The notes below the pieces were generated by a model, which worked only from the letters and a program-made list of their open reading frames with translations, was not told the origin of the DNA and did not search any database. Of a stretch of 64,000 bases of DNA, positions 11,751 to 43,275 are shown in pieces; within the stretch, counting starts at the first letter, position 1, and the number at the start of each line of letters is the position of its first letter. A program made the translations under genes and the position numbers. Location of the stretch: contig DAOUGD010000123.1 in assembly GCA_034429475.1 (NCBI GenBank), forward strand, positions 6,934 through 70,933, given 5' to 3'. The DNA comes from Anaerolineae bacterium. Lineage in GTDB: Bacteria; Chloroflexota; Anaerolineae; B4-G1; SLSP01.

Positions 11751-11756
11751 TGGCGA

Positions 11757-16008: not shown

Positions 16009-16264
16009 AAAATCACCTCTGATTCAAAAGCTGGCGTTTGGTTGAAAACTGATCCGTGATACGCGATGGCCTTCTCACGCATCACGCATTATAACCTAAG
16101 CGTCTGTAAAAATATCACTTCCCGCTGCGGCCGGTCTCCGACCGCGCCACCACGGGGCATTGACCTGTCCGGCCAGCCAGCCTATAATCATAGGGCTGGC
16201 GCTTACCGACCTCGTGTGCGGGTGGGCGCCGACGGGAAGCATACAGAGCAAAAGAGGTGTAAAA

Positions 16265-20633: not shown

Positions 20634-20810
20634 GGCATCCTGTCTACTCAAGAGATCGCCAAGCGGATTCCGCAGCTTTCTGGTCAGCAACTCAGTAAGG
20701 AGGAATTAAGTGCCGAAGCGCTGGCCCTGGCGCAGTTCATTATTGAAGAGTTAAGGAAGGAGAAATAAAAAAATGTCCGATCTATTGTATTTAGACAATA
20801 AAATCAGACA

Positions 20811-20849
20811 TTTTTTATGTGTCGGGGCAGAGCGATTTGAACGCTCGAC
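20811..20849 (-). other. tRNA 3-prime fragment (variable region + T-arm GAGCG-TTCAAAT-CGCTC + acceptor 3-prime strand TGCCCCG-A) with no 5-prime half; putative att-site remnant
   Basis: Reverse complement reads CATTGAAGAGGTCGAGCGTTCAAATCGCTCTGCCCCGACA; no CGGGGCA partner for the acceptor stem within 100 nt. Confidence 0.5.
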
Positions 20850-20994
20850 CTCTTCAATGTCCGGGCATGTTAGCTCATCCTACATAGATTTTCCCCTATT
20901 CCCTCACCTAGTATATAACCATTCCGACGCGCCGCAACAGGCTTAGCAGGTCTGTCGCGGCGCTATTTTGTATTTCATCCTATGGAGGTTTCCA

Positions 20995-21285
20995 ATGAAT
21001 GTAACCAATCCTAATCCCCACACGCATATTGTTTTTCGCGGCGACCGCTTGCGCGCGTTGCGTCAACAACTGCATATCTCAGTGGATCGCATTGCCCGCG
21101 CTACCGAGTTGACCACTCACCACATCTATCGCCTGGAACACAACGACCGCTTCAAAGTATGAGGCATCACAATTGCCAAATTAGCCCTGGCCCTCAACAC
21201 CAGTTGTGATTACCTCCTCAATCTTACCGACGACCCGCGCCCCCACAACACTCCTATGCCCATAGAGACTACACTCGACCTATGA
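20995..21285 (+). pseudogene. XRE-family HTH regulator interrupted by an in-frame TGA (21160-21162)
   Basis: MNVTNPNPHTHIVFRGDRLRALRQQLHISVDRIARATELTTHHIYRLEHNDRFKV*GITIAKLALALNTSCDYLLNLTDD. The conserved HTH C-terminal half continues in frame after the stop. RBS GGAGG before ATG 20995. Confidence 0.55.
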
Positions 21286-21434
21286 CCCTACCATCAGCGG
21301 ACCACTCTCTATGGGATACCGCCGGTACGGCATCGCGACGAAGAAATATATCTTCTAATGAAAACTCCGCAATGCTATGAGAGAAACCCATGGCCACATC
21401 CTGCCCCTGGTCACCGCCACCGGGAGGCCTAGCC

Positions 21435-21869
21435 ATGATGCCATTCGATCTGCGTCAATACTGCGACCTGAGCGACAGTGACTTGGCAGTATTACTCAAT
21501 CCTGGCAGTGCCTCGGCAGCGCAACGCCTGGTACTTAGCCAGGAAGGATGGCTCGAATTACCCACCTTGGCCCTGACTGCCGCTGGCGCACAACTCCGGA
21601 CACGAGCGCTCCGGTTGATACAGCGCGAGGAAACCTTACCACAACCGCTAAGCCTGCCCGACTTACCACATGGTAGCCTCTCAACCCAGGTCGCTTGCCT
21701 GCGCTATGTCGCAACCCATCCGGGCGCGGCCTGGCGGTATCTGACCCAGTTGTTTGGCCGCGAGGTGGTGGAACAGTGTCATCACGCCGGTTGGTTGACC
21801 GGTGAATTACGCCGGGGTGCGCCGCAGGAATTGACGCAGTTGGGTATCCGGTACGTGCAGGGAAACTGA
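21435..21869 (+). CDS. hypothetical protein (island)
   Basis: ATG preceded by GGGAGG; protein-like composition; no recognisable motif. Confidence 0.45.
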   Translation: MMPFDLRQYCDLSDSDLAVLLNPGSASAAQRLVLSQEGWLELPTLALTAAGAQLRTRALRLIQREETLPQPLSLPDLPHGSLSTQVACLRYVATHPGAAWRYLTQLFGREVVEQCHHAGWLTGELRRGAPQELTQLGIRYVQGN

Positions 21870-21880
21870 GGAGGAGCGCT

Positions 21881-23524
21881 ATGGACACCGTCGAATCACT
21901 CAAGGATCGCCGTCGCATGTATTTGAGCGCCGCGCGGGAAAAGCTGTGCTTGTTGGCTCGCGCCGCCCTGAACGTCACATTGGACCCAATCAGGGATGTC
22001 CGCCTCATCGCCGGGCCACGAGCCGGGGCGCTACTGATTGACGCCGGGGTGGCGGGGGGCGCCCTCATGAACTATCTCCGCGCCGACGAGTGCGCGAACG
22101 CGCGCCAGATTGTGCGGTGGGAATTCACCGGGGACCCCACCGTCGGGATGGATGGAGTGTACGTGCGCCTGGAAGCCAATTGGCCCGCCGACCTGGCCGA
22201 TACCGCGATTGAACTCCGGGCCGTCAGCCGGCATCCCCTGGGTTACGGACGCTGGATCGCCGCGCAGAACGAAAACGGCGTCACTATCAACGGCATTTTC
22301 GATGACCAGACCCCCCATTGGTTGATCGGCGGCACGTCGGGGTCGGGCAAGACTACCGCGATCCTGTCGTTGGTCTACCAGTTGTCGCGCAGGGTTTCCC
22401 CGAAGACCCGCCGGGAGCGGGAACAAAAAGAACGCGACCACGAAGCGGAAATGGCTAAAAAGCACGGGCGCGCGCCCCGGGAGATTGTTCCGGAAAACCC
22501 AGATACCCGGTTAGTCCTGATTGATGGGCGCAACGGCGCCGGCCTGGCGGTGCTACAGAGGTTACCCCACCTGGTCGGCCCCCTGGCCACCGACATTGAC
22601 AGCGCCACACTGGCTCTGGCCTGGGTAGACGCGGAGATCGACCGGCGTAATCGTCTCATCGTAGCGCAGGGCGCGGCTGCGGTACGGGCGCTGCCCCGGA
22701 TTGTCGTGGTCATTGATGAATTTCAAGAGCTGTTTCAGGATCCGACCGTGCGGGAACTGGCCCGGAAGGGGTTAGCCACCGGGCGGGCCGTCCGGGTCAG
22801 CTTTGTACTGGCAACCCAAAGTCCCGCGATGGCCGCGTTCGGCGACGACACGTCGATGCGGCGGAACCTGAGTGGGCGGATCGCCTTGCGCGTTACCGAT
22901 GGTGATGCCAGTCGGGTCGTAATGGGCAACTCCGACTTCCACGCCGAACGGTTGGCGGGGCAGGGCGACTGCTACATCCTCACCCCGGAACGCACGCAGC
23001 GCGCGCAAATCTGCTACCTGGATCCGGAAGACATCGCGGAGGAACCGCAGTATGAACCAGAACTGGCCGAGTGGCCAGAACCGGCGCAAACCCTGCCTGG
23101 CCAAAGCCAGATGACCAACTACGCCTTCTCCGGGACGGAACTGGCCCACGCGCTCCACGCTGTTACGCAAGGCTGGGGGCGCAATCGGCTGGGAGATACA
23201 ATGGTTGCCGCCGGTCTGGGTCGTCCAGGGGGAGCGCGGGGGCCGCGGTTACTCAAGGTGGGACGTGAACTGCAAGACACCCTGGAAACGTTGGGGCTGA
23301 TCGTCGTAGTCGCCCCGACCACAGACTCCGACCTGGAGGCCGCAGACCCTGAGCAGGAGGCCGTAGATTCCGCGCCGGAAACCGCCAGGACCGAGCCAGT
23401 CCCGGCATTTTCCCCGACGGACGGGGAATGGGCCGAGATAGATCCTGACCGGGTCACCCCTACACCGCGCCGCGGGCGCGCCAGTGGGAAGCGCCGGGGC
23501 AATGGCAATGGGGGGCAACCGTGA
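21881..23524 (+). CDS. FtsK/SpoIIIE-family DNA translocase (TraB/TraSA-like conjugative transfer ATPase)
   Basis: Walker A GGTSGSGKTTAIL; Walker B VVVIDEFQELF; C-terminal Pro/Arg-rich tail. Confidence 0.85.
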   Translation: MDTVESLKDRRRMYLSAAREKLCLLARAALNVTLDPIRDVRLIAGPRAGALLIDAGVAGGALMNYLRADECANARQIVRWEFTGDPTVGMDGVYVRLEANWPADLADTAIELRAVSRHPLGYGRWIAAQNENGVTINGIFDDQTPHWLIGGTSGSGKTTAILSLVYQLSRRVSPKTRREREQKERDHEAEMAKKHGRAPREIVPENPDTRLVLIDGRNGAGLAVLQRLPHLVGPLATDIDSATLALAWVDAEIDRRNRLIVAQGAAAVRALPRIVVVIDEFQELFQDPTVRELARKGLATGRAVRVSFVLATQSPAMAAFGDDTSMRRNLSGRIALRVTDGDASRVVMGNSDFHAERLAGQGDCYILTPERTQRAQICYLDPEDIAEEPQYEPELAEWPEPAQTLPGQSQMTNYAFSGTELAHALHAVTQGWGRNRLGDTMVAAGLGRPGGARGPRLLKVGRELQDTLETLGLIVVVAPTTDSDLEAADPEQEAVDSAPETARTEPVPAFSPTDGEWAEIDPDRVTPTPRRGRASGKRRGNGNGGQP

Positions 23525-23775
23525 CTGTCGTTTTGGCGCTGGGATTAGCCGTAACGGCGTTTGGGTCCGGGCTGCTGCTCGCGCTGGGCGCCACCGTAGT
23601 GCTCCCCAGGACGATCAACATTCGGGAATCCCGGCACAGCCTGAGCCTGATCCTCGCCGCGATCTTCTGCGGACTGCTGTTGGGGGCGCAGGTGCGTGAC
23701 CCGGAAATCTGGGCCGTGACCGTGTTGATCTTAGGGGGCTTCTTTAGTTATTTAGAACAATATGCTCGTCATTAA
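23521..23775 (+). CDS. small membrane protein (GTG start overlapping the FtsK-like stop)
   Basis: 84 aa, two TM helices; translational coupling (ccGTGActg). Confidence 0.5.
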   Translation: MTVVLALGLAVTAFGSGLLLALGATVVLPRTINIRESRHSLSLILAAIFCGLLLGAQVRDPEIWAVTVLILGGFFSYLEQYARH

Positions 23776-23776
23776 C

Positions 23777-23874
23777 TGCCTGCCTGCCTGCCTACCTGGG
23801 GTGGCCCCGGCACGGGCGGAATTTTCCGGGCATTCCGGGGCGACGGGGGCACAGACAGGGTAGGCAGGCAGGCA
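23777..23874. repeat. long inverted repeat: 17-19-bp arms CTGCCTGCCTGCCTACCTGG / CAGGGTAGGCAGGCAGGCA enclosing about 60 bp with nested palindromes
   Basis: Arms are reverse complements (one mismatch); inner sequence has GCCCCG...CGGGGC and GGAAT...ATTCC sub-palindromes. Confidence 0.65.
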
Positions 23875-23896
23875 CAAACACTGCAAGGAGGGGTCA

Positions 23897-24382
23897 ATGA
23901 CTAAGAAAGGTAGTCCACACAAAACCGTCACAACCTACGCCACGCCCGCACCGACCGGAGATGAACTCCGCCAGCGCCTAATCCTCATCGGCGTCGGACT
24001 GGCCGGCGCGCTGACGCTCGCCCTGTTAGGGGGCATCGTCTACTGGCTCTTCACGGCCACTCTGAGTACGCTGCGCTGGTGGGCGGGATTGGCGACTGTC
24101 GGGGCCGCGCTGCTCCCCTTCCTGGGATATTTTCTGGGGACATCTACCAGCCGGGCGCATCAGGAAGGCTTGGCCGCCGGGGTACAAACTGCTCAGGATA
24201 TTATGCAGACCGGCGTCGCCACCACTATGCGGGCCGCGGCCGACACGGCGGAGGTCCGGATCACGACCGCGCACGCCTTACGCCCGCCCGCCGCTGCCGG
24301 CAAGCTGACGCTGGATGAGTTAAATCGGCTTGTCCGCACCTTGCCGTCAACCACGGCGGACGGAGAACGCTATCAGGGATAG
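23897..24382 (+). CDS. membrane protein (island; Spd-like candidate)
   Basis: MTKK start after AAGGAGGGG; two TM helices then an Ala-rich soluble part. Confidence 0.5.
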   Translation: MTKKGSPHKTVTTYATPAPTGDELRQRLILIGVGLAGALTLALLGGIVYWLFTATLSTLRWWAGLATVGAALLPFLGYFLGTSTSRAHQEGLAAGVQTAQDIMQTGVATTMRAAADTAEVRITTAHALRPPAAAGKLTLDELNRLVRTLPSTTADGERYQG

Positions 24383-24399
24383 ATCAAGGAGAAAAGACC

Positions 24400-24987
24400 A
24401 TGACTAAGAAATCGCTGATTCAGTCCATTACTTCAAGGCCGGCGTCTAGCGAGGGAGGCCGTCCTGGTGACCAAACTATGACCTGGCAGGTGTCCGCCCC
24501 CGCCGTGCTGGCCGTAGCACAACCGGCCACCGTCCCAGCTCTGACGCGCCCGGAGTTGTTGACCTGGCTGTACACGGCGCCAGCCCGCCGATCAGATACC
24601 ACGCTGGCTGCCGACCTGGATACAGGCCTGGTGACGATTCTCGTGGCGCACACTCTGCAATACCCTGTGACCTGGGCCGAGCCAATGGGCCAGGTGGGCC
24701 GCTTTGTGCAGGCCGCCTACCAGCAACGGGACTACCCCGATCCGGACTTGATCGTGGCGCTGACCACGGACGCCACAGCGTTTCAAGCCGCGATGCGCCG
24801 CTTCCAGATGGTACGTCTGAAGCCACACCGGGGTTGGGGTAAGTGGTATCAAGCCATAATGGCCGCCGCCCGCGACCTGGTCGCCCCCTTGCAGGCGCTG
24901 CGCCCCACAGCGGACGAAGCCCGGTTTGTGCTGCGGTGGGCGGCTCTGGTCGCAGCCACTGGCAGCCAGTACGGCGTGGTGGAATAG
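24400..24987 (+). CDS. hypothetical protein (island)
   Basis: MTKK start with AAGGAG RBS; protein-like composition. Confidence 0.5.
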   Translation: MTKKSLIQSITSRPASSEGGRPGDQTMTWQVSAPAVLAVAQPATVPALTRPELLTWLYTAPARRSDTTLAADLDTGLVTILVAHTLQYPVTWAEPMGQVGRFVQAAYQQRDYPDPDLIVALTTDATAFQAAMRRFQMVRLKPHRGWGKWYQAIMAAARDLVAPLQALRPTADEARFVLRWAALVAATGSQYGVVE

Positions 24988-24997
24988 GGGCGGAGCG

Positions 24998-25300
24998 ATG
25001 AAACGCATGGTGGGGATCATGGGGGCGCTGACCTGGATTGGCGTCTTCTTCGCCCTGGCGGTGGGCAACGCCGCCGGCGATGACATCGCCGCCGCGCTCA
25101 ATCGGCTGGCCGACGCCTGGCAACCCACACCTACCCCAACACCCATGCGGGTAGTGACCATGAGCGTAAGCCACGCCGCCGGCGACTCGCCGGTGCTGGT
25201 CTTTCTGGTCCTGGCCGGGCTGTTGCTCGGTGGGATCGGCCTGTGCGTGTGGCTCCGGCGGCGCGCCCACCCCCACTTACTCCCGGAGGAAACCGCGTGA
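24998..25300 (+). CDS. small secreted/membrane protein with PTPTPTP linker
   Basis: Signal-like N-terminus MKRMVGIMGALTWIGVFFALAVGNAAG and C-terminal TM. Confidence 0.5.
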   Translation: MKRMVGIMGALTWIGVFFALAVGNAAGDDIAAALNRLADAWQPTPTPTPMRVVTMSVSHAAGDSPVLVFLVLAGLLLGGIGLCVWLRRRAHPHLLPEETA

Positions 25301-25499
25301 ACGCGGCCATCGGGATTTCAATCGTCGAGGGCGCGGCGCTGTGGGATATGCCCCAGCCTGCTGCGTCACTGGCTCAAACAAGGCGTGATTCCCAGCGATT
25401 GGCTGGGGAATAAGGTTGTGTAGTTGACGCTGGCCGCACTGGTCACGCTCAGTAAATGGAAATGGTAAGGTTATTCAACCAGAAACGGAGGACGCACTG

Positions 25500-26735
25500 A
25501 TGGATGCTAATTTGGTCACGACACCGACAATGAACACCGACACCCAGCCCCAGTTCCAGGTCGTGGGCCTGGACGAAGGCGCGGGCGCCGTCAAAATCTA
25601 CACCGCATTCGGCGCAACGGAGTTTAACTCCCAGATCGCCCACAACGGGACGGACGCGCCGGGCGCGGTCGCCGGGCTGGAAACCCTGACCCCGCCCCTG
25701 CAAATCACCTTCACCGGCGGCACGTTCTACACCGGTCCCGGCGCGCACGCCTGGGGCCGCCCGGTGGAGAACCTGGACTTCGGCCGCTTCGCCGGCAGCC
25801 CGGAGATGGCGGCCATCCTCTACGGGGCCTTTACCCGCCATGTCGAAACCTATGGTACACTCGCCCCACTACGGCTCAAGGTCGGCCTGCCGCAGCAGGC
25901 GTTGGCCGGCGAGGCGGGCAAGGAAATCATCCCCGGCGTGAAAAGTTGGCTGACCGGCGCCCATCAGTGGGCGGCGCAGAACGGCCACGTCCCACCCGCG
26001 GCGCGTGCAGCGGCGCGCGAGCACCTGGAACGCTTCGCGGCAACCGCCAGCAAGGACGATCTCATTGCCCGTGCTGCGCAAGAAGGACTGACGCTGGCCC
26101 GCTCCTGGCACAAGGCCCAGATGGTGGACGCCATGCTGGACAATGCCGATCTCGTTGTCAGTTTTGGCGGCGGTACGCTCCACACGGATTACAGCCTGGA
26201 GGTGCGCGATGTGCAGGTGACCTCACAGCCGGTGGGGGCGTGGTTCGACTTCCTGTTGGACGAGGCCGGCAGTTTCCTCCCGGCGCGCAAGCCGCTGTAC
26301 GCCCAGGAAATCGGCGTCATCTCCATCGGTATGAGCACCGTGGAACTGTTGGTCGTACAGCAGGGCAAGGCCAGCCCCCGGTTCACCCGCGGCGAGACTG
26401 AAGGCGTGCAGCGACTGTTGGCCCTGGCGAATCCCCGCAATCACTACTCCCGCGGCGAGATGGACGCCCGGCTGCGCAGCGGAGCGCTCAACACCGAACT
26501 GCCCACCTTGTTGCCGATGTGGTGGCCGGACATCAACGGCCTGATCAATCAGGTATGGGAAAGCACCTGGGAGCGGTTTGGCGCAGTGATCATCGTCGGC
26601 GGTGGGGCGATCTTGTTGGGCGACTACCTGCGGCGCAAGTTCCGCGAGAAGGCCGTCATCCCAGATAGCCCCGTGCTGGCCGTGGCGCGGGGGCTGTACA
26701 AGTTCGGCGTGATGCAGACGCGGCAGGGGAAATGA
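25500..26735 (+). CDS. ParM/StbA-like actin-fold ATPase (plasmid segregation protein)
   Basis: Phosphate-1 like VVGLDEGAGAVKIY and a second phosphate loop ISIGMSTVELLVV; 411 aa. Confidence 0.6.
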   Translation: MDANLVTTPTMNTDTQPQFQVVGLDEGAGAVKIYTAFGATEFNSQIAHNGTDAPGAVAGLETLTPPLQITFTGGTFYTGPGAHAWGRPVENLDFGRFAGSPEMAAILYGAFTRHVETYGTLAPLRLKVGLPQQALAGEAGKEIIPGVKSWLTGAHQWAAQNGHVPPAARAAAREHLERFAATASKDDLIARAAQEGLTLARSWHKAQMVDAMLDNADLVVSFGGGTLHTDYSLEVRDVQVTSQPVGAWFDFLLDEAGSFLPARKPLYAQEIGVISIGMSTVELLVVQQGKASPRFTRGETEGVQRLLALANPRNHYSRGEMDARLRSGALNTELPTLLPMWWPDINGLINQVWESTWERFGAVIIVGGGAILLGDYLRRKFREKAVIPDSPVLAVARGLYKFGVMQTRQGK

Positions 26736-26740
26736 GCGTG

Positions 26741-26789
26741 AATTCTTTGACGTAAAGAATTATCGCTAAATTCTTTACGTCAAAGAATT
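26741..26789. promoter_or_regulatory. two inverted copies of a 21-bp near-palindrome AATTCTTTGACGTAAAGAATT / AATTCTTTACGTCAAAGAATT (centromere-like or operator site)
   Basis: Copies at 26741-26761 and 26769-26789 are exact reverse complements. They lie between the parM-like stop and the next small gene. Confidence 0.65.
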
Positions 26790-26809
26790 TCCGACCTTTG
26801 AGGTGCAAG

Positions 26810-27049
26810 ATGGCGCGTATTTCTAAAACTGAACGCCCCCAGCGCATCAATGTCTCTTTGTTGCTCTATCCGAGTCGGCATCAGGCCGTGATGGATTATC
26901 TGGGCCGCGCGGATGGCCTGAGCCGCGCGGCCAAAGTCATCAACGCCATCACGGTCGCCCTTACCGGCGGCGCGCTCGCCACCTCCCAGGAGGTGTCTCC
27001 GGATGAAGTCGCCACCATGTTGGCCGATATGGAAGGCTTGTTTAGTTAG
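26810..27049 (+). CDS. small protein downstream of the ParM-like gene (candidate ParR-type adaptor / DNA-binding protein)
   Basis: MARISKTERPQRINVSLLLYP... 80 aa; position analogous to parR; no motif proof. Confidence 0.45.
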   Translation: MARISKTERPQRINVSLLLYPSRHQAVMDYLGRADGLSRAAKVINAITVALTGGALATSQEVSPDEVATMLADMEGLFS

Positions 27050-27236
27050 TCTGACGGGGAGTCCCGCGTTTTCCAGGAGAACATTGATGACGCCCATTAC
27101 CTTTGCACACTACGCGGCCCTGGTCTCACCGGCCGACGCCCTGGCTGGCGTCCTCCGTCCAGGATGTCGGCCGGTGAAGCCCGCGCCGCGCCGGTGGCTG
27201 TTGTTCCCATTAATCTTTCACCAACAAGGAGAGCCG

Positions 27237-27578
27237 ATGTCAACATATCTCGATCAACTCACCCGGCGGCTGGCGGATCTATCCGCTATCAGCGCCATTC
27301 ACGGCGCAGAAAACACCGTTAGTTTCACCAGTCAGGGACAGGTCTGGCAACTCGTGGGCGACCCGGACAACGACTGTATCCACTTGCTCCAAGCGGACGG
27401 GGGCGAAAAACTGTCCTGGTCCTGGACGCAGTACGTGGCGCTGCCGGTAGATGTGCTGCTCATAGACCTGCTGCCAGCGTTGGGGTTGGCTAGTCTGACC
27501 TCTGTGCTGCAAATCGCAGACGGTCTTTTAGGTCAGCGCCGGGGGGAGCAGCGGTCGGCGCAACCCCTTTGGAGGTAG
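27237..27578 (+). CDS. hypothetical protein (island)
   Basis: ATG preceded by AAGGAGAG; the longer ORF in the track has an Arg/Pro-rich N-extension. Confidence 0.45.
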   Translation: MSTYLDQLTRRLADLSAISAIHGAENTVSFTSQGQVWQLVGDPDNDCIHLLQADGGEKLSWSWTQYVALPVDVLLIDLLPALGLASLTSVLQIADGLLGQRRGEQRSAQPLWR

Positions 27579-27585
27579 GTAACCG

Positions 27586-27981
27586 ATGCACAGTCAACCA
27601 CAGCCCATAAAAATCACCTTTACCGTGCCGCCAGAAATGGCGCGCATCTTAACGGAGCTGGTGAGTGCGCCCGCGCGCCAGCAACGCCATTTGGCCGAAG
27701 TGTTGATCGCCGAAGCCATGCAGCTCAACCAGGTCGCGGAAAAGTGCCGCGAAGCCACCGCCCCAAACAACCTGGATAACCCCCAGCAGCTAGCTTCTGT
27801 GCTCGAACAGCAGTCAGAATGGCTAACCCATTTAGCGCGCTGGCTATGGAATGTTAGTCAAGGCAGCAATGTCGCGGCTGAGGACTATCAAAACTCTGCC
27901 CCTATCCCGCTGGCAGTCAATGTGCAGCGCGAGTTAGATCGGGGACAAGCGGCGGGAGCTACCCGCGATGGCGACCAATAA
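27586..27981 (+). CDS. hypothetical protein (island), possible RHH-like N-terminus
   Basis: GGAGG RBS; IKITFTVPPEMARILTEL. Confidence 0.45.
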   Translation: MHSQPQPIKITFTVPPEMARILTELVSAPARQQRHLAEVLIAEAMQLNQVAEKCREATAPNNLDNPQQLASVLEQQSEWLTHLARWLWNVSQGSNVAAEDYQNSAPIPLAVNVQRELDRGQAAGATRDGDQ

Positions 27982-28110
27982 CCCCGCCGTAAGGCGGACC
28001 CTGGCCGCGCCGGCGGTCGCCGATGCGTAGCCGTTCCTCTCAACCGGGGGGCTACCGCGGCGCTCGGCGCTGGGCTACCTGGGGGGGCGAGTTAGGGAAA
28101 GGAACTCAGG

Positions 28111-28941
28111 ATGAGCTTTCGCTACTACGGCAGTAAGAAAAGTCTGGCCGCGTGGATTACGGAAATGTTGCCGCGCCACGTCTGCTACGTCGAACCCTAC
28201 GGCGGCAGCGCGGCGGTGTTGCTGCATCGCAATCCACCCGCGCCCCGCGAGGTGTACAACGACCTCGACGACCAGGTCGTGACGCTGTTCCGCGTGCTGC
28301 GTGAGCGTCCAGCGGAGTTGGCCGCGCAGGTTGCCTTCACCCCCTACGCCCGCCGCGAGGTGGAAACCGCCCGCCAGCCGCTGGCTCCCACCCACCCGGA
28401 CTATGACCTGGAAGTGGCCCGCCGTTTCCTGATCCGCGCCGGGCAGACCCGCGCGGGGGCCTCACGGCGGGATGTCCATTGGATCTGGCAAAAGGCAGGG
28501 AATCGGGGCGGCTACTACCCGGCGGAATGGGCCGAGTTGCCGGCGGAACTCCTGCGCATCGCCGCGCGCCTCAAGCACGTCCAGATCGAGCACACGGACG
28601 CGCTGACGGCGATTGTGCGCTACGACAGCCCGCAGACCTGCTTCTACCTCGACCCGCCGTATCTGTTTCCGCACAAGCAGCGCGCCGGGACGTACCGCTG
28701 CGAAATGACGCCGGACGATCATCGGGAACTAGCGCAGCTCCTTCACGACATCAAAGGCATGGCGCTCATCAGCGGCGTGCCGGGCGAGTACGACCAGTTG
28801 TACGGCGACTGGCGGCGCGAATGTCTACCGGCGCTCACCAGCAGTCACACGGTCACGCCGGAATGTGTGTGGCTCTCGCCGGCGGCGCAACGGTACGCCC
28901 CTCAACCGCGCCTGTGGGCCGAGGCCGGCGATGCCCTTTAA
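28111..28941 (+). CDS. DNA adenine methyltransferase, D12 class (Dam-like)
   Basis: N-terminal FRYYGSKKSLAAWI and catalytic DPPY (CFYLDPPYLFP). Confidence 0.85.
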   Translation: MSFRYYGSKKSLAAWITEMLPRHVCYVEPYGGSAAVLLHRNPPAPREVYNDLDDQVVTLFRVLRERPAELAAQVAFTPYARREVETARQPLAPTHPDYDLEVARRFLIRAGQTRAGASRRDVHWIWQKAGNRGGYYPAEWAELPAELLRIAARLKHVQIEHTDALTAIVRYDSPQTCFYLDPPYLFPHKQRAGTYRCEMTPDDHRELAQLLHDIKGMALISGVPGEYDQLYGDWRRECLPALTSSHTVTPECVWLSPAAQRYAPQPRLWAEAGDAL

Positions 28942-29245
28942 GCGTTGGCTGTATCCACGCAATTGGAAAGCGATTGCGGCGCGGATCAAGACGGCGGCGG
29001 GCTGGCGGTGTGAACAATGCGGCCATCCGCACGACCCGGTGGGGTACTATGTCCTGGCAGTGCATCACATTGATGGCGACCGGGCGAACAACGCGGACGA
29101 AAACCTGGTGGCGTTGTGCCAACGCTGTCACCTGGCGCTGCACGCGCGGAAGCTGGTCGGGCAACGGATGTTCGAGTTTGCCTGGCCCACCTGGTGGCGC
29201 AAACGCCAGCCGCCGGCGGAACACGCCGGGGAAAAACACGACTGA
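28931..29245 (+). CDS. HNH endonuclease
   Basis: HNH motif HHIDGDRANNADENLVALCQRCH plus CEQCG zinc knuckle; ATG overlaps the Dam stop by 11 nt. Confidence 0.8.
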   Translation: MPFKRWLYPRNWKAIAARIKTAAGWRCEQCGHPHDPVGYYVLAVHHIDGDRANNADENLVALCQRCHLALHARKLVGQRMFEFAWPTWWRKRQPPAEHAGEKHD

Positions 29246-29266
29246 TTTCGCACAACGGAGGAACCG

Positions 29267-29908
29267 ATGGAAGTGGATAACACATTTATTCCAGATAGAT
29301 TTGCAGATTTGATCGCTGCGGGGCTGATGTGCCCCTATTGTCATATTCCGCTGGTGGCAACTAACTTAGTTCCCCTACACAGATTAGCCATAGGAGTACA
29401 CGCGGGGCGGCCCTGGATCGGGACCACTCATACCCACGCCACTGGCGAACTGACTCACATTTACTGTGAACAGTGCGGCTACCCCGAAATCGTCTGGACA
29501 GAAGCAGAGCAGGTCGCGCTGCGCCAATACGAGATACAAGCCCTGGCTGTGTTCGAGCAGTACCCCGAACAGTTCCCGGTGTATATCTATCGCCAGGATG
29601 ATGGGTTACAGTTTAGCTTGGTTGAAACTGGCGCAAAATTACTCAAAACCATCTATCCGCTTTACCGCGTAATGAGCCGCTCAACATCTCAACCAACGCA
29701 TGTATGGGAGTCGGCGGGAAACGCATTTCACACCCCGGACGCCGCGGCGGCACAGTGTCATTCATTTGGCATTTACGAACAATGGGTCACACCCTTGCGT
29801 CTCTACACGGTGTGGCCATGGGAAGATCGGATATGGATACTACAACCGTTGCATGAAGAGGACTTGTGCAACTACCCGGAGTACCTGACGCCGCAGAGGG
29901 CAAGATAA
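29267..29908 (+). CDS. hypothetical protein with zinc-ribbon Cys pairs (CPYC...CEQC)
   Basis: GGAGG RBS; 213 aa. Confidence 0.5.
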   Translation: MEVDNTFIPDRFADLIAAGLMCPYCHIPLVATNLVPLHRLAIGVHAGRPWIGTTHTHATGELTHIYCEQCGYPEIVWTEAEQVALRQYEIQALAVFEQYPEQFPVYIYRQDDGLQFSLVETGAKLLKTIYPLYRVMSRSTSQPTHVWESAGNAFHTPDAAAAQCHSFGIYEQWVTPLRLYTVWPWEDRIWILQPLHEEDLCNYPEYLTPQRAR

Positions 29909-30949
29909 ATGATCCTGGCATTACCTATCTATACCTGGGGCGCCGCCCCGGAAAACCTGAAAACGCGCCGTCAACTGGCCGAAATGGGCTTACGGCCCGG
30001 CGGCCCGGAAGTGGCGCGCGTGGAGTGGTTCCGGCAGGGGACACCCAGGTTTGCCCGACTGTATGACGTGGCCCAGGCCGTGCCGAAGTCGCCGGCCACG
30101 TCTACGCAGTTAGCCGCACTGGCAAAAGCACGGCTGAAGCGGCAACAATGCCCGGTCTGCGGCTATGCCCTGGGACATATACCGGGTCGGCGTTTCTATC
30201 CACCCACCGATTGCCCACAATGCTGCGCCCGCCAACGCCAGGCAGACCGCGCGCGGGCGACCCAGCGCGCGCAACAGGCATTGGCGAATCCGCAAGCCGT
30301 CATCCTGGACACCGAAACGACTGACCTTGACGGCTACCTTGTCCAGATCGCCGTGTTGAGCGGGGACGGAACGGTGCTGCTGGACACGCGGCTCAACCCG
30401 GGGGCCGCCATCAGCCCGGACGCCCAGGCCATCCACGGAATTACCGCCGAGATGGTGGCAGCTGCGCCCAGGTTTCAGGACATGGAAGCCGAGCTACAAG
30501 CCCTGCTCACTGATCGGCCGGTGTGGATTTACCACGCCGATTTCGACATCGGGGTCCTGGATCGGGAAGTGGAGCGGGCACACCCCCGCGACCGCCACGC
30601 GCCGGGGGAGTGGACGCCAGCGTGGCCGAGTGCGCTGCACCACTATTGCGCGATGGAACTGTACGCGGCGTGGGTAGGCGAGTGGAGCGACTATTACCGC
30701 AACTATCGCTGGCAGCGCCTGCCGGGTGGGGATCACACGGCGCTGGGCGACTGTCAGGCGACATTGGCGGTACTCAAAGCTATGGCCACCGGCGGGAAAC
30801 CAGATGCCGGCTTTCAAACAATGGGCACTGATTGCCAATATTGCCCTACCTGCGCCCGATTTGTCTGGGTGGTGGGGTGCAACGCCGCCGGGCAATTCAT
30901 CTGCCCGGATTGTGGGGCAGTGACGCAGGAACAGGAGTTACCGTTTTGA
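29909..30949 (+). CDS. DEDDh 3-prime-5-prime exonuclease (DnaQ-like) fused to zinc-finger modules
   Basis: Exo I ILDTETTD, Exo II IYHADFDIGVLD, Exo III HTALGDCQATLAVLK; CPVCG and CPDCG zinc fingers. Confidence 0.75.
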   Translation: MILALPIYTWGAAPENLKTRRQLAEMGLRPGGPEVARVEWFRQGTPRFARLYDVAQAVPKSPATSTQLAALAKARLKRQQCPVCGYALGHIPGRRFYPPTDCPQCCARQRQADRARATQRAQQALANPQAVILDTETTDLDGYLVQIAVLSGDGTVLLDTRLNPGAAISPDAQAIHGITAEMVAAAPRFQDMEAELQALLTDRPVWIYHADFDIGVLDREVERAHPRDRHAPGEWTPAWPSALHHYCAMELYAAWVGEWSDYYRNYRWQRLPGGDHTALGDCQATLAVLKAMATGGKPDAGFQTMGTDCQYCPTCARFVWVVGCNAAGQFICPDCGAVTQEQELPF

Positions 30950-31383
30950 TGGACGAGGTCTGGCCTGGCGGGCGCGCTGGCGATCCGCGCGCTCTGGCGT
31001 TGTACCGGCGGCATTACTCGTGCTATCAGTATCGGGACGGCCGCCGCCCTACGCGCTTTGCCGGACCAGGGGACCGCCTGGTGCTGCTCACACCGGAATG
31101 CAATGCCCTGTTGGTATGGCGCAAATTCCGCGATGCCCGCGGGCAGGTCGGCGTGACCTGCGCCGTGTTCCGCAACGCAGGGCCGCGGTTGTCCCGCGAT
31201 TTGCTGCGCGCCGGGATGGCGCGGGTCTGGACGCGCTGGCCAGGCGCACGGTTATATACCTGCGTCAACCCATACCGGATTCGCAGCACCAATCCGGGCT
31301 ACTGTTTTCGAATGGCGGGATGGCGCAAATGCGGGCGCACGCAGGCGCGGCGACTGGTGATTTTGGAGGCATATCCAGATTGA
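30949..31383 (+). CDS. conserved hypothetical plasmid/phage protein
   Basis: ATG overlaps the upstream stop (TGATGG); ALYRRHYSCYQY...NPGYCFRMAGW. Confidence 0.5.
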   Translation: MDEVWPGGRAGDPRALALYRRHYSCYQYRDGRRPTRFAGPGDRLVLLTPECNALLVWRKFRDARGQVGVTCAVFRNAGPRLSRDLLRAGMARVWTRWPGARLYTCVNPYRIRSTNPGYCFRMAGWRKCGRTQARRLVILEAYPD

Positions 31384-31411
31384 GAGTAATGCTGTGAAAC
31401 AAGGACGAGCA

Positions 31412-31783
31412 ATGACCACCAACTCAGACTTCAAAGCCTGGTTATTAACCCAAATCCAGCCGCGTGGTTGGCGACTGGCCGACCTGGCGCGGCACAGTGG
31501 AGTACGCTACACTACCCTCAACCGTATCTTCAGTGGCACGCGGGGCATCGGCCCGGATGTCTGCCGGGCATTGGCACACGCCCTCGGGCTGCCCGCCGAA
31601 ATGGTATTCCGGCAAGCCGGGTTACTCCCGGCGGCGCCCGATCTGACCGCCATCCCGGAACTGCTGGCTGTGGCCCTGGCTATGCTCACCGCGCTGCCGC
31701 CATCCGAGCAGCAATTGATCGGCGAGTTCATTCAATGGCGCTACACCCGCCAGCCATTGGAAAACGCACAGGGGAAACGATGA
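31412..31783 (+). CDS. XRE-family HTH transcriptional regulator (repressor-like)
   Basis: LADLARHSGVRYTTLNRIFSGTRGIGPDVCRALAHALG. Confidence 0.6.
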   Translation: MTTNSDFKAWLLTQIQPRGWRLADLARHSGVRYTTLNRIFSGTRGIGPDVCRALAHALGLPAEMVFRQAGLLPAAPDLTAIPELLAVALAMLTALPPSEQQLIGEFIQWRYTRQPLENAQGKR

Positions 31784-32184
31784 CTGAGAGCCAGGTAGAT
31801 TTCACCGAATTGTCGCATGGCGCGCAACGCCGGATCATGCGCCGCCCCACTGTAGCAGTATTGGCACGGGTCAGTAGGGGCCGGGGCTGGAGCTTGATAT
31901 GGCCGCACAATGCGGCTCACCGGGAAGCATTGCTCATGCAAGGCTACCATCCCATTGGCAATATCCCGGATAAAGCGACGTGGTCCGCGCAACCCCCGCC
32001 CCAGTACGTGGTGCAGTGCGGACGCTGGGGCGTGCAGGTACACGCTGACGGGACGTATACCCTGCGCCGTACGGACTGCCCGATCACCCTGCGACTGACA
32101 GGGCCAGATTTGACCGACGCCACGAACGCGCTGGTGCAGGTCGAGGTTGCCCGCCAACCGGTATTACGGTCCGTTTCAGAATGA
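31780..32184 (+). CDS. hypothetical protein (island)
   Basis: ATG overlaps the upstream stop; the 5-prime part of track ORF 31468..32184 is an out-of-frame overlap. Confidence 0.45.
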   Translation: MTESQVDFTELSHGAQRRIMRRPTVAVLARVSRGRGWSLIWPHNAAHREALLMQGYHPIGNIPDKATWSAQPPPQYVVQCGRWGVQVHADGTYTLRRTDCPITLRLTGPDLTDATNALVQVEVARQPVLRSVSE

Positions 32185-32247
32185 GGCTGGAAAGCATGGC
32201 ACTTATGGTGGGAAATCTTATCAATAGCGTAGGAGTCGTTATACATC

Positions 32248-32592
32248 ATGCGGAATTTGTCTACATGGCTACTGGAGCAGCTGGAACAGCGGCGCTGGGA
32301 TGTTGGCGAATTGGCGCGGCGCAGCTACCTATCGGAACAAACAATTTACTCGCTGCTCAACCCCAAGACCCCCAACGTCAGATCGGATACCCTGCTCAAA
32401 CTGATCCGCACCCTCAAAATTTCGTTAGTCACCTTTGCGGTGCAGCTTAGCGGAATGCCCGAATATCGCCAGCCCGAAACGCTGGAAATCGCCGATCTGT
32501 GCGATTTGTTGGGGGATGACGAACGGCGCGTCATTCTGGGTATCGTACGCTCACTATTCTCTGAGGCGAAAGATGATCCAGACGAGATATGA
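32248..32592 (+). CDS. XRE-family HTH transcriptional regulator
   Basis: VGELARRSYLSEQTIYSLLNPKTPNVRSDTLLKLIRTLKISLVTF. Confidence 0.55.
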   Translation: MRNLSTWLLEQLEQRRWDVGELARRSYLSEQTIYSLLNPKTPNVRSDTLLKLIRTLKISLVTFAVQLSGMPEYRQPETLEIADLCDLLGDDERRVILGIVRSLFSEAKDDPDEI

Positions 32593-32814
32593 GCAGCGTG
32601 GGACAGCCGGCCAGCGGAGACTGGCCGGTAGAAATCCCGACCACGCACTGGGCGCGGTGGCTGGAACAGGCGCGGCAGGTATAACAGCCGCTACGCCCGG
32701 TTGAAAATCGGGCCGACGGCCCAAGCCTCGTTCATCGTGACCGTGCAGTTAACGCTAGACGAGTTGGGTGAGATTCTGGCCAGGGCAATACGCAATGGAG
32801 ATAGGGTGGTGAAA

Positions 32815-33663
32815 ATGGAAACGAAAGCCTTCGATGGCGCCCGCGTGTGGCAAGCGGCGCTGGGGGAACTGCAATTGCAGATGACCAGCGCCACCTATCA
32901 TACGTGGCTGAGTGATACGCGCTGGGTGGCGACGGATACCGACAGTGAGACACTGATCATCGCGGTGAAGAATGGCTATGCCGTGGAGTGGCTCTCCAAC
33001 CGGCTGTACCCGGTCGTCGAGCGCACCCTCAAGCGCATCACTGGCAACGGTTGGGCAGCGCAGTTCGTTGTTCAGGAGCCTACCCCCATCCAGCGCCCGG
33101 AGTGGTTGGCGACTGAAGTCGCATGGCGCGCCCCGGACTTTGATCCGAGCGACCCCAAGAAAGTGGCCGGGTGGGTACCGGTGCCGGAGTACGGGCAACT
33201 GTTCTGGGCGCCCTTGTTGGGGCCGATTGCCTGGCGGGTGTGGGAGATCGTGCGGCGTACCGACCATCAGGGCGCACCTCACGATTGGACACCGCGTGTG
33301 CGTTACAGCGCACCGGAACTGGCCCGGCTCGTGCCGTGCGGCAAGCAGGCCTTGACCGGGCGCAACCGGCAGTGTGATCCCGATACCCCTGGGGCGCAAG
33401 AAATGACGCTGACGCCACTGGGCCAGGCCGCCATGACGACTTGGGCGCGGCACAACCCTGGTGCGTTTGACCGGTTGCAGCAGTATGATTTGGCCGAGAT
33501 CACTGTCAGTGGCAGTGGCCGGCGCCAGGTCTATACGCTGAGTGTGCGTTGGCGGTTGCCATTGCTACACCCCACCGAGGTCGCGGAACTCAGCGCTGAG
33601 CTACAAATCCGCCATGACCAGTGGGTACTGGAACACGGCATGGATCCGGAGTTGTGGGCATAA
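32815..33663 (+). CDS. putative replication initiator with DnaA N-terminal-like domain
   Basis: ARVWQAALGELQLQMTSATYHTWLSDTRWVATDTDSETLIIAVKNGYAVEWLSNRLYPVVERTL resembles the DnaA_N fold pattern; followed immediately by iterons. Confidence 0.5.
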   Translation: METKAFDGARVWQAALGELQLQMTSATYHTWLSDTRWVATDTDSETLIIAVKNGYAVEWLSNRLYPVVERTLKRITGNGWAAQFVVQEPTPIQRPEWLATEVAWRAPDFDPSDPKKVAGWVPVPEYGQLFWAPLLGPIAWRVWEIVRRTDHQGAPHDWTPRVRYSAPELARLVPCGKQALTGRNRQCDPDTPGAQEMTLTPLGQAAMTTWARHNPGAFDRLQQYDLAEITVSGSGRRQVYTLSVRWRLPLLHPTEVAELSAELQIRHDQWVLEHGMDPELWA

Positions 33664-34207
33664 AACCACGATACGGTGCAAATGCACCGAATATATGATG
33701 CAAATGCACCGATAATGTAACGAGCAGGTGATTGCGTCCAGAGATCAGTACAGGAAGATTGCAGGAAGCGAGTTATGTTCACTCTGTCAGTGACGTGCGC
33801 CAATCCTACAGATTTGGGAAATAGCGCGGCGTTGATTGTGGTCTGTCTCCATAACCAAGGTCTCGCGTGCCGCTGGAACCCGCGAAGCCCGGTTGCCGGG
33901 GGCAACTTGCGGTCAGACAGTTTTACGTTCTGTTTGCCGGATATGGTAAAGGTGGGCGCCGAAACCGCCGATCAACTACGCCACCTTACCTGGAATTTAC
34001 ATAACACGGCTGAGATGATAGACACCGAAATTGCGGCATTTGAGCATGGCTGCCACTCCGCGACCACCACTGTCCGGTGGAATGGGATCGTCCGGAGGCC
34101 GATCAATCCCCGTTTTCGCTGCAAATGCACCGAATATCCGATGCAAATGCACCGATAATGATGCAGCAAACTGTCTAAAGAGTAATATCGCACACAAAAA
34201 ATTACTC

Positions 34208-34244
34208 GCCACCGTCCCCCAGGAGCACTCCTGGGGGCGGTGGC
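34208..34244. other. strong hairpin: GCCACCGTCCCCCAGGA-GCAC-TCCTGGGGGCGGTGGC, followed by CCTTTTAAAGG
   Basis: 16-bp stem with one bulge; within the iteron region. Confidence 0.6.
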
Positions 34245-34320
34245 CTTTTAAAGGGGTTGCCAGAGGCTGGAAAACCAGGCTACGGTCCCCGGGGCATAGC
34301 GGGGCCAGCCGCGCGATTTA

Positions 34321-34359
34321 GCCGCGCATATCCGAGGTTTTGCCCCGGATATGCGCGGC
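34321..34359. other. strong hairpin: 14-bp perfect stem GCCGCGCATATCCG / CGGATATGCGCGGC, loop AGGTTTTGCCC
   Basis: Perfect complementarity read directly. Confidence 0.6.
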
Positions 34360-34758
34360 ACTGTAACTCCGAACGCATCTGGCATTCGGTGCATTTGCAC
34401 CGACCCCAGGGAGACAAGATAAGAATTAAAGATAAAACAAGAAGCCATCTGGTTCTTTATCTTATGTATGAGTCTGGCGCGCGCAGGCGCACTGCCGGGC
34501 CCTTCTCTCCAGAAAAGCTCTGTAATAGTTTTGTTGCCATTCGCCGGTTAGAAAATGTTCTAGTATTGTGGACTGGCAGTCAAAGGGATTGGAACAAAAA
34601 ACAGGCAGATTGGCACGATTTAGCTAGAAAGTTATGTTATCATAATCCCCGATGCAGCGGGATTTTTAATTAGAATCCAGCCTAAAAAACGTCTCGTGAC
34701 CGGCGCTAACTGCGGAGGCGTTTTTTGGGTGTCAATTTTACTGTGGGGAATAAGCAAA

Positions 34759-36404: not shown

Positions 36405-36631
36405 TCGGGATATTGGCCGGGACACCCTTGGAGGAACAATCCGGGGTTTTGCGCGCCGCCCTGGCGACTGTGTGGCAGGCGCAACTGGAGATCCGTTTGG
36501 ATTTCTGGGCGCAGGATGTCCTGGCGCAGGTACGCGCCAGTAGCGACATTGCCAGCGCGGTACAAGCCGTCGCGCCGCTCCTCGACGCGGATGTGTGGAT
36601 TAGCCCGGAGTGGCCGGATGCCGGAGACTGA
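36386..36631 (+). CDS. small hypothetical protein, translationally coupled between the acyltransferase and the kinase
   Basis: ATG overlaps the upstream stop; its stop overlaps the kinase ATG. Confidence 0.4.
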
Positions 36632-38525: not shown

Positions 38526-38528
38526 GAT

Positions 38529-39800: not shown

Positions 39801-39818
39801 TAGATAGGGGAGGATAGT

Positions 39819-43265: not shown

Positions 43266-43275
43266 GAGGCTGCTG

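Follow-up and report, generated by a model that had tools for sequence, protein, structure and literature searches.

A plasmid-like island with an FtsK-type motor and no integrase in an Anaerolineae bacterium, and its candidate role in DNA transfer

What kind of element is the block of co-directional genes that occupies about 13.7 kb of a 64,000-nucleotide stretch of contig DAOUGD010000123.1 from an Anaerolineae bacterium, and does the FtsK-type ATPase that it encodes move DNA from cell to cell? The whole of that stretch is referred to here as the window, and the block, which spans window positions 20,822 to approximately 34.4-34.53 kb, as the island. A sequence-only reading of the window had described it as an integrated, plasmid-like island resembling the integrative and conjugative elements of actinomycetes (AICEs), with a TraB-type translocase and no recognizable integrase. 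We are highly confident that the block is a mobile element of the plasmid type, and the explanation that we favor, with slightly better than even confidence, is that it belongs to a family of plasmid-like Chloroflexota elements, as an integrated copy that has no integrase. By analogy with known systems, its motor and the associated membrane proteins probably move element DNA across membranes or septa; mediation of cell-to-cell transfer by the motor is a plausible role that we hold with somewhat less than even confidence.

Twenty-one genes were called in the island, all within 20,995-33,663 and every one on the plus strand, and at six junctions (23521/23524, 28931/28941, 29908/29909, 30949, 31780/31783, and 32589/32592) the start of a gene overlaps or abuts the preceding stop, bearing out the overlapping, co-directional arrangement described earlier. 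The functions that had been assigned to these genes (FtsK, small membrane proteins, a ParM-like protein with a palindrome, XRE regulators, Dam and HNH, a DEDDh exonuclease, and a DnaA-N-like Rep protein followed by iterons) were confirmed, by Pfam, PHROG, and PDB matches and, for the membrane proteins, by hydropathy. The features on which the argument turns are given below in window coordinates, together with the percent protein identity to a sister element, L054, where one was obtained.

20822..20866, minus strand: 45-nt tRNA-3'-like fragment (variable loop, T arm, acceptor 3' strand, and discriminator) as read from the sequence; putative att-like left terminus of the island
20995..21285, plus strand: XRE-family regulator gene of 96 codons with a TGG-to-TGA nonsense change at 21160-21162 (HTH_25/19/31 below Pfam cutoffs)
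21881..23524, plus strand: soluble FtsK-type alpha-beta motor ATPase of 547 aa (Pfam FtsK_SpoIIIE, 2.2e-15)
23521..23775, plus strand: 84-aa membrane protein with two hydrophobic segments, its start overlapping the motor stop codon; 58% identical in L054
23897..24382, plus strand: 161-aa protein with two membrane helices (cluster C1), conserved partner of the motor by hydropathy and neighborhood
25007..25300, plus strand: 97-aa two-helix membrane protein containing a PT-rich linker (gene call, hydropathy); 68% identical in L054
25500..26735, plus strand: ParM-like actin-family partition ATPase (phrog_691 "partition protein," 2.6e-23); 89.5% identical in L054
26741..26789, no strand: two 21-bp palindromic sites, AATTCTTTGACGTAAAGAATT and its complement, with 100% complementary arms 7 nt apart
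26810..27049, plus strand: 79-aa protein, candidate ParR-type adaptor (gene call with no Pfam match); 62% identical in L054
32701..33663, plus strand: initiator-like 320-aa protein, DnaA domain I (residues ~48-125) joined to an unrelated C-terminal part (DnaA_N, 1.4e-07; PDB DnaA domain I, 7e-07); 77% identical in L054
33671..34403, no strand: five copies of the near-palindrome CGGTGCAAATGCACCG, as two pairs 22 bp apart and a further one in inverted orientation; candidate iterons or origin
34404..34530, no strand: zone containing the right end of the island; similarity to the relative L138 begins at ~34527-34660

Movement of the block between chromosomal contexts was evident from the sister element (represented by L054 and L139-L143 and also present in a Chloroflexota metagenome-assembled genome [MAG]), which has the same gene order and 57-90% protein identity within unrelated flanks. 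DNA similarity between the two was limited to 21421-33626. At its start the sister element has a large serine recombinase of 495-511 aa and an excisionase-like gene of the HTH_17 type, and at its end it has iterons; terminase, portal, capsid, tail, and lysis genes were found neither in nor beside the island or the sister element. Because two diverged copies end alike in different chromosomal settings, we take their common end to be the natural end of the element and not the product of independent prophage deletions. Taken together with a 97% identical variant that has a different left flank and with L138, which lacks the island, the sister element supports the earlier description of an integrated, plasmid-like island. 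The unrelated flanks of the sister element and the left flank of the variant also contradict the first part of the outcome that had been named as fatal to that description, namely, the same chromosomal synteny everywhere.

Both ends of the island could be placed. At the left, sequences L147 to L150 are 97.3% identical to the window from exactly 20820 rightward and carry unrelated sequence leftward (another terminator and a McrB-like gene), and Logan contig L002 begins at 20828. At the sequence level, the comparison with L147-L150 settles the role of the putative tRNA fragment as a boundary. The left edge had been placed at a tRNA 3' fragment beside an insertion sequence (IS), and this is the exact switch point of the 97% variant, although the tRNA identity itself is statistically weak: the Rfam tRNA match reaches 11.6 bits (E value of 2.9), ends at model position 71 of 71, and appears only with a search truncated at the fragment. 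No RNA gene in the window was reported by ARAGORN or by Rfam at gathering thresholds, and an exact search of IMG/VR with the 25-nt T-arm/acceptor sequence returned nothing. The fragment has the T stem GAGCG/CGCTC, the loop TTCAAAT, and the 3' end GGTCGAGCGTTCAAATCGCTCTGCCCCGA and is followed by a terminator hairpin. A 45-nt tRNA 3' piece with a terminator is the expected far-end remnant of an insertion by a tyrosine integrase, and a tRNA on the minus strand predicts that the element lies to the right of the fragment, which matches the window. At the right, L138, whose acyltransferase is 65% identical to the one flanking the island, lacks the island but carries this acyltransferase together with the small gene and the membrane protein. 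This fixed the right boundary, moving it from the 34.7 kb originally proposed to ~34.4-34.53 kb, but no true empty site was found: in a single scan of metagenomes, the acyltransferase of the flank matched just a 96% copy that has the island and the 65% relative, in which the upstream region is different.

The island was said to have no integrase, and Pfam scans of the window, the precomputed Pfam matches of its called genes, and tblastn searches with four large serine recombinases as queries all failed to reveal a recombinase. The accompanying suggestion that the integration module lies elsewhere did not hold up; relatives carry a serine or tyrosine recombinase inside the element, so the window copy simply lost or never received its own. 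Because it has no recombinase, it would need one in trans. The copy is non-autonomous for excision and integration, and it is not an old wreck. In comparisons with variant copies, the ratio of nonsynonymous to synonymous substitution rates (dN/dS) was 0.10 for the motor, 0.15 for ParM, 0.02 for Dam, and 0.17 for the initiator, and between 0.02 and 0.25 for most genes, demonstrating purifying selection; values near or above 1 were obtained only for a 144-aa protein and one XRE gene. Three XRE genes are present, as had been stated, and the leftmost is a pseudogene whose nonsense mutation is recent: its TGA codon appears in three independent assemblies, whereas the 97% variant L147 has TGG and an intact 96-codon gene, for which a weak precomputed HTH_19 match exists. 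The description of the island as immobilized or decaying is therefore only partly apt. The missing recombinase, the interrupted XRE gene, and the degenerate neighboring IS fit it, and the low dN/dS of most genes does not.

The motor has the fold of an FtsK alpha-beta ATPase, with a lineage-specific insert at residues ~168-208, a small C-terminal three-helix domain (predicted at residues 418-470 in an AlphaFold2 model), and a disordered tail. Neither Walker A (G151-K157) nor Walker B (D279-E280) varies in an alignment of 30 sequences of relatives, and the family profile matched the FtsK motor in the PDB at 3e-40. When the AlphaFold2 model (predicted local distance difference test score of 85.7) was used as a Foldseek query, the complete FtsK alpha-beta motor came out on top (E value of 5e-22, target TM score of 0.69, and ~400 aligned columns), and the next-best structures were the pCW3 coupling protein TcpA and then EccC/EssC. 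The FtsK 4TM (PF13491) and gamma (PF09397) domains, both present in chromosomal FtsK matches, were not found in the motor by Pfam. Membrane proteins follow the motor gene with great regularity: a protein of ~150 aa with 1-2 membrane helices was located immediately after it in 10 of the 12 loci having downstream sequence, often with further membrane proteins next. Homologues of C1 occupy the position directly downstream in 6 loci, and an analogous 1-2-helix protein, C5, occupies it in 3 more. This arrangement suggests a split design in which a soluble ring motor would be paired with a separately encoded, adjacent membrane anchor. Between the 84-aa and 161-aa genes, the segment 23777-23874 holds a (TGCC)n-type run and, 62 nt later, its perfect 16-nt complement.

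Relatives of the motor were sought among 5.8 billion proteins and by an exhaustive profile search. The first approach yielded ~78 relatives at E values of ≤1e-33, followed by a gap to chromosomal FtsK at ~1e-12, and the second yielded >130 full-length clusters at 50% identity, typically of 420-500 aa. Family members scored 275-650 bits against the profile and the next-best proteins <180 bits. The members come mostly from Chloroflexota metagenomes, with Chloroflexota, Anaerolineales, and Thermoflexales MAGs among their sources; in sequenced plasmids and phages no close homologue was detected, the matches being ≤33% identical and restricted to the motor region. ParM-like genes accompany the motor in 6 loci and DnaA_N initiators in 3. 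Large serine recombinases are present in four loci (L054, L057, L058, and L061), and those of L057 and L058 stand at the element end, adjoining tRNA-Lys or tRNA-Gly, while tyrosine recombinases are found in L004 and L006. The distant member L154 has a Prim-Pol/DUF927 gene together with HTH_17 and ParM. This mix of companions (Int, Rep, and an FtsK-like Tra) is what the definition of an AICE requires.

The replication and partition genes give the island the character of a plasmid. Besides its PHROG match, the ParM-like protein had weak matches to MreB-like_C in Pfam and to ParM in the PDB (E values of 0.02-0.07), and its 90% identity cluster is named ParM/StbA by NCBI. The palindromes at 26741-26789, between the parM-like gene and the next small gene, are a candidate centromere or operator, and the position and N-terminal sequence of the 79-aa product of that small gene make it a candidate ParR-type adaptor. 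Over residues ~48-125, the initiator shares 54-64% identity with domain I of the chromosomal DnaA of Anaerolineae, and the initiator family comprises ~36 members of 260-320 aa, all from similar metagenomes. Domain I of DnaA, as known from Escherichia coli and Bacillus subtilis, contacts the replicative helicase and regulators. Fused to a different DNA-binding part and encoded beside iterons, it is best read, by analogy, as a device that would recruit host replication factors to the origin of the element. The 8-mers of the CGGTGCAAATGCACCG repeat are the most overrepresented in the island. An open reading frame (ORF) at 33775-34158 among the repeats is probably not a gene, and the variant L137 lacks 200 bp of 33782-33982 inside the repeat region. 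At the same place after its initiator gene, the sister element has 6-8 palindromic repeats with the core GGTGCAAAAGCACC and a 31-bp spacing, so that the iteron-type replicon layout, an initiator gene adjoining repeats, is present in both. The 77% identity of the two initiators and the slightly different repeat cores fit a protein and its predicted binding sites changing together. As a separate observation, the DnaA domain I of the initiator looks like a recent domain capture from the host.

A working model can be assembled from these parts. A site-specific recombinase would excise the element; in the sister element this would be the large serine recombinase with its excisionase-like helper and in other relatives a tyrosine recombinase. 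The resulting circle would replicate from the iteron region, where the initiator would sit on the palindromic repeats and its DnaA domain I would recruit the host replication machinery, and a ParM-like filament acting via the palindromic site would partition the copies. The small membrane proteins would hold an FtsK-type hexameric pump at the membrane or septum, and this pump would move double-stranded DNA (dsDNA) to the neighboring cell, a step that may be likened to the action of TraB with the Spd proteins of actinomycete plasmids and AICEs. The XRE regulators would keep the element quiet. What the sequences show is the gene content, the fold of the motor, the limits of the island, its movement between contexts, the missing integrase, and the purifying selection; we infer each of the biochemical steps, above all the transfer of DNA between cells.

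A number of observations weigh against this model, and conjugation is offered here as a hypothesis and not as a finding. The family profile scored 135-150 bits with chromosomal FtsK versus 52-59 bits with Streptomyces Tra-type proteins of TraB size (L127-L133), the relatives of which sit on small Streptomyces and Pseudonocardia plasmids. Because of this lower score, the motor family is placed outside the TraB group, as a separate offshoot of the FtsK motor so far as sequence comparison can tell. The motor also has no membrane helix, hydropathy giving no hydrophobic segment outside the ATPase core, and its C-terminal helical domain has no detectable similarity to FtsK gamma (hhalign probability of 7.5%). 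Given the scores and the missing membrane segment, and with no gamma or winged helix-turn-helix (wHTH) domain detected, the label "TraB-type" that the sequence-only reading had given the motor had to be withdrawn as a statement of membership. No clustered 8-mer that could represent clt-like repeats was found in the island besides the iterons; the parM-side palindromes also stand out. With respect to integration, no contig with the terminal overlap of a circular form was found, and no intact tRNA matching the fragment was detected by ARAGORN or Rfam in the window, in the 6 kb to its left, or in the 9 kb to its right. A tRNA 5' half was not found at the right end, and L138 has no tRNA at the corresponding place. 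The intact tRNA and the integrase expected at the right end are absent, and the integration history may have included deletion of the integrase-tRNA end, rearrangement between att copies, or capture of the fragment by the element. Of the sequences that cover the variant, L148 supplies the left part and L137 the right part, where the right flank is unchanged; their 61-nt overlap is only 95% identical, and the two may derive from different genomes.

The motor and membrane-protein pair is, moreover, shared with at least some tailed temperate phages. In L152 (6179-14663), Phage_rep_O, the motor, MT-A70, and ten small genes are followed by a large terminase (phrog_38, 2.5e-86), and in L156 (151-2760) together with L004 (5024-11746) a gene for a tail-fibre-J-like protein lies upstream of a CI-like gene, accompanied by genes for a tyrosine integrase, a primase, the motor, and a protein homologous to the 161-aa C1 membrane protein. 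A conjugation pump is unexpected in a tailed phage, and these contexts lower our confidence that the job of the motor is conjugation. They are also consistent with a phage-related origin, in which the island would be a phage satellite or would represent an early-region type that survives from a lineage of temperate phages, spreading in helper or parent virions, with the motor pair acting, for example, in keeping out incoming DNA, in genome processing, or in spread within a filament in place of conjugation. Three close relatives in IMG/VR point the same way, as do four island proteins with PHROG matches (FtsK-like, partition, exonuclease subunit, and phrog_24928) and the general frequency of Dam, HNH, exonuclease, and XRE genes in phage early regions. 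We nevertheless regard a phage-related origin as unlikely. Virion and lysis genes are missing from the island, the sister element, and their surroundings, and both copies end alike after the iterons in different contexts, which would not be expected of independent late-region deletions. ParM, the initiator, and the iterons point to a plasmid state, the island DNA had no match among 50,697 phage records, protein matches to sequenced phages stay within the ≤33% seen for the motor only, and the L004 contig could represent two adjacent elements.

A similarly improbable alternative is that the island is a non-transmissible integrative plasmid that moves only passively, the motor and its partners serving maintenance, such as septal clearing or segregation in a filamentous host or the resolution of multimers. 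The motor is most like cellular FtsK, which clears DNA from the septum and acts in dimer resolution, and it is linked to ParM and the initiator in several loci. The lack of clt-like repeats would be in keeping with such a role, and the same pair in phage genomes would fit a housekeeping function for any replicon in such hosts. Conversely, the host has its own FtsK, as judged by the chromosomal matches from Anaerolineae, and a second motor needs a reason. The tightly conserved membrane partner and the additional membrane proteins resemble transfer or spread modules, and the prevalence of this widespread family of elements across many contexts argues for efficient horizontal movement. That the block is an ordinary chromosomal cluster, with a paralogue of FtsK and no mobility, we consider highly improbable. 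The G+C content of the island (0.56-0.67 per kb) has the same range as that of the flanks, and the comparison of G+C against the flanks that had been proposed as a check thus gave no contrast. Exact copies of the window sequence (the 107-kb contig JGI 3300021561 Ga0226655_10000152 and MAG GCA_964465495.1) all lie on contigs collinear with the window, at the same locus. Against a chromosomal cluster stand the same core in unrelated flanks with a serine recombinase, the 97% variant with its different left flank, L138 with the right flank but no block, and a gene set made up of plasmid functions. The integrated, integrase-less plasmid-like element is the reading that we prefer. A broader extension of it, that filamentous Chloroflexota own an independently recruited single-motor system for dsDNA transfer, consisting of a soluble FtsK ring docked on a small membrane protein, on which integrative plasmids and temperate phages alike would rely for spreading along filaments or from one to another, is put forward as tentative and rather doubtful.

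How the island relates to known systems can be judged module by module. AICEs are defined by Int, Rep, and an FtsK-domain Tra, and 13% of them use serine recombinases (PMC3429521); they often integrate at the 3' end of a tRNA gene (PMC3429521, PMC2440964), and single-protein, FtsK-driven dsDNA transfer has been treated as essentially confined to mycelial actinomycetes (PMC3429521). Like AICEs such as pSAM2, SLP1, and pMEA300 and the TraB plasmids of Streptomyces, the island falls in the size range of 10-17 kb, has one FtsK-domain ATPase followed by small membrane proteins, has no type IV secretion system (T4SS) or relaxase, has its own initiator and repressor-type regulators, and belongs to a host that forms multicellular filaments. 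Some of its relatives, also like AICEs, carry a tyrosine or serine recombinase. Unlike AICEs, it is found in Chloroflexota, its proteins being listed publicly under Anaerolineae bacterium, and not in Actinomycetales, its initiator is a DnaA-domain-I fusion with palindromic iterons instead of RepSA, RepAM, or Prim-Pol, it has a partition module of the ParM type, Nudix (Pif) and GntR (Kor) genes are absent, and the window copy has no integrase. Unlike TraB, its motor has neither a membrane domain nor a demonstrable wHTH. The comparison with AICEs made in the sequence-only reading consequently survives for the three-module logic of translocase plus membrane proteins, replication, and regulation, but not for the motor, which is outside the TraB group. 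The island has the FtsK-domain protein of the AICE definition and departs from AICEs in its lack of a recombinase, its initiator type, and its host; in architecture and size it works like an AICE without being a member of that group.

A second point of reference is ICEth1 of Thermus thermophilus, a T4SS-less integrative and conjugative element (ICE) of 14.9 kb flanked by 47-bp tRNA 3' repeats (PMC5365140). Both elements lie outside Actinomycetota, lack a T4SS, have a tRNA 3' boundary (tRNA-3'-like in the island), and carry methylase and nuclease genes, and the transjugation ATPase of ICEth1, TdtA, is a ring ATPase of the FtsK-HerA superfamily that pushes DNA out of the donor (PMC5365140), which is the candidate role of the motor here. 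The two differ in that TdtA is HerA-like, whereas the island motor has the FtsK alpha-beta fold, and in that the island has an initiator, iterons, and ParM; DNA uptake in Thermus uses natural competence. With chromosomal FtsK and SpoIIIE, the motor shares the alpha and beta motor domains, the Walker A and B motifs, and the fold. It differs from them in having no N-terminal 4TM domain, linker, or gamma domain, in its length (420-550 aa versus 750-850 aa), and in a family that is always found in mobile-element, variable contexts. TcpA of Clostridium perfringens pCW3, the second-best structural match, is likewise an FtsK-like conjugation ATPase in a monoderm, but it works with a multiprotein Tcp apparatus and a relaxase, none of which is present among the island genes. 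The cis-mobilizable elements (CIMEs) described for the ICESt elements of Streptococcus are integrated, have an att-like end, lack a recombinase of their own, and can be moved by the recombinase of another element, and the island is alike in these respects. Classical CIMEs, however, have lost their transfer and replication genes and keep both att sites, whereas the modules of the island are intact and only one att-like end is recognizable. The island is none of the following: a TraB element, a chromosomal FtsK locus, a tailed prophage, a T4SS-type ICE, or a known defense system.

In a literature search of incomplete coverage, no paper was found that links FtsK-type conjugative elements with Chloroflexota, which is not proof of novelty. 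What the island introduces is a large family of small integrative elements, so far without annotation and from a second filamentous phylum, that combines the module logic of AICEs with an FtsK-proximal motor, a different initiator, and ParM. If the motor moves DNA between cells, conjugation of this kind evolved or spread beyond Actinomycetota and would be a major unrecognized path by which genes flow among Anaerolineae, a group abundant in digesters and sediments. If filamentous Chloroflexota did recruit such a single-motor system independently, multicellular, monoderm-like bacteria would have arrived at TraB-style conjugation repeatedly, and it would not be a peculiarity of actinomycetes. The window copy, non-autonomous and slightly damaged, has its value mainly as an entry point to the family. 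The initiator is of interest in its own right, with its close copy of host DnaA domain I as a likely device for recruiting host replication factors.

The remaining features of the island, and the IS that flanks it, are as follows.

19406..20632, minus strand: IS4-type IS outside the island, with perfect 17-bp terminal inverted repeats CAATGTCATTAAGTTAA / TTAACTTAATGACATTG
21435..21869, plus strand: conserved 144-aa protein, function not assigned, preceding the motor gene; 75% identical in L054
24400..24987, plus strand: soluble 195-aa protein, function not assigned; 67% identical in L054
27087..27981, plus strand: two genes of 163 and 131 aa, function not assigned, in the most variable segment of the island
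28111-28941, plus strand: D12-class N6-adenine DNA methyltransferase (Dam; Pfam, 1.8e-15), kept in L054
28931-29245, plus strand: HNH endonuclease (Pfam, 1.3e-06), overlapping the Dam gene by 11 nt and kept in L054
29267..29908, plus strand: Cys-rich 213-aa protein, function not assigned (gene call)
29909..30949, plus strand: DEDDh (RNase T/DnaQ-like) exonuclease, extended at its N terminus and carrying a zinc ribbon at its C terminus (RNase_T, 4.3e-12; phrog_192, 8e-38; PADLOC DEDDh, 8.5e-23)
30949..32684, plus strand: regulatory block of a 144-aa protein (phrog_24928), an XRE gene (31412-31783), a 134-aa protein, an XRE gene (32248-32592), and a 31-codon ORF (Pfam, gene calls, PHROG)

The 144-aa protein at 21435..21869, the 195-aa protein, and the Cys-rich protein had no match in Pfam, PHROG, or PADLOC, and the 163-aa and 131-aa genes had none in Pfam or PADLOC. 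In 97% variants, the segment at ~27.0-28.1 kb that includes these last two genes is either absent or only 70-82% identical at the DNA level. Neither virion nor T4SS nor relaxase genes were found in or beside the island by Pfam or PHROGs, and relaxase, VirB4, and mating-pore coupling protein families were absent from the Pfam matches of the island, several small proteins of which have no assignment. A PADLOC scan of the island revealed no known defense system; apart from DEDDh, it returned only generic FtsK-domain matches (SspH and mad8, ~66 bits) and no partner proteins, and a defense-system reading was rejected because matching partner proteins were missing. A prophage reading of the large plus-strand ORFs at 35-51 kb and 58-61 kb was also rejected. 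Terminase, portal, capsid, and tail genes were not found by Pfam or PHROGs in window 20-64 kb, and what was found downstream of the island, at 35-64 kb, were instead metabolic genes and genes for secreted proteins, an acyltransferase, and two hybrid histidine kinases.

The transposase of the flanking IS is degenerate, being split over frames by a frameshift and containing an internal stop. Its Y-x2-R-x3-E-x6-K motif, YHQRWPVEEDYKVIK, fits the IS4 Y-R-E-K signature. The IS appears to interrupt a plus-strand gene of which only the C-terminal end is left (20634-20770), before a bidirectional terminator at 20760-20819. In L147, positions 1-3535, beside the tRNA-like fragment on the minus strand, encode an 830-aa protein with a McrB-like AAA motif, recognized by eye, and a 242-aa partner, and the junction at the fragment appears to be an insertion hot spot. 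Divergence of the window from L137 was 2-5% through the island and continued to ~36.5 kb (10.6% in 36.0-36.5 kb) before falling to 0-0.4% (36500-41247); the recombined or exchanged tract relative to L137 is therefore ~2 kb longer than the island.

Elsewhere in the window, the region at 3000-14000 has a lower G+C content (0.49-0.57 versus 0.60-0.67 elsewhere) and may be another acquired region; its genes encode a MalT-like regulator, a nitroreductase, a dehydrogenase, and DUF4386/DUF6326 proteins. Four paralogues of the PEMT/ICMT family of membrane methyltransferases are located at 16160-16837, 56495-57187, 62070-62630, and 62688-63248, and two CbiA/ParA-like proteins with 4Fe-4S domains are located at 54125-55012 and 61062-61925. 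The segment from 39819 to 52133 holds twelve plus-strand genes with no assigned function, which include those for a 1148-aa protein and several proteins of 340-450 aa with signal-peptide-like N termini, one of which has CLIPPER/DUF11 and PPC domains. It also encodes a single-stranded DNA-binding protein (SSB; 47976-48383), a 561-aa protein, and two near-identical membrane proteins of 63-64 aa (50994-51188 and 51942-52133). Its large proteins had no Pfam or PHROG match, and the block does not co-occur with loci of the FtsK family; it could be another mobile or cell-surface module. Within the gene for the 1148-aa secreted protein, internal repeats of ~90-96 nt with 77-78% identity are present at 40278-41012, and L137 shows multiple cross-matches there.

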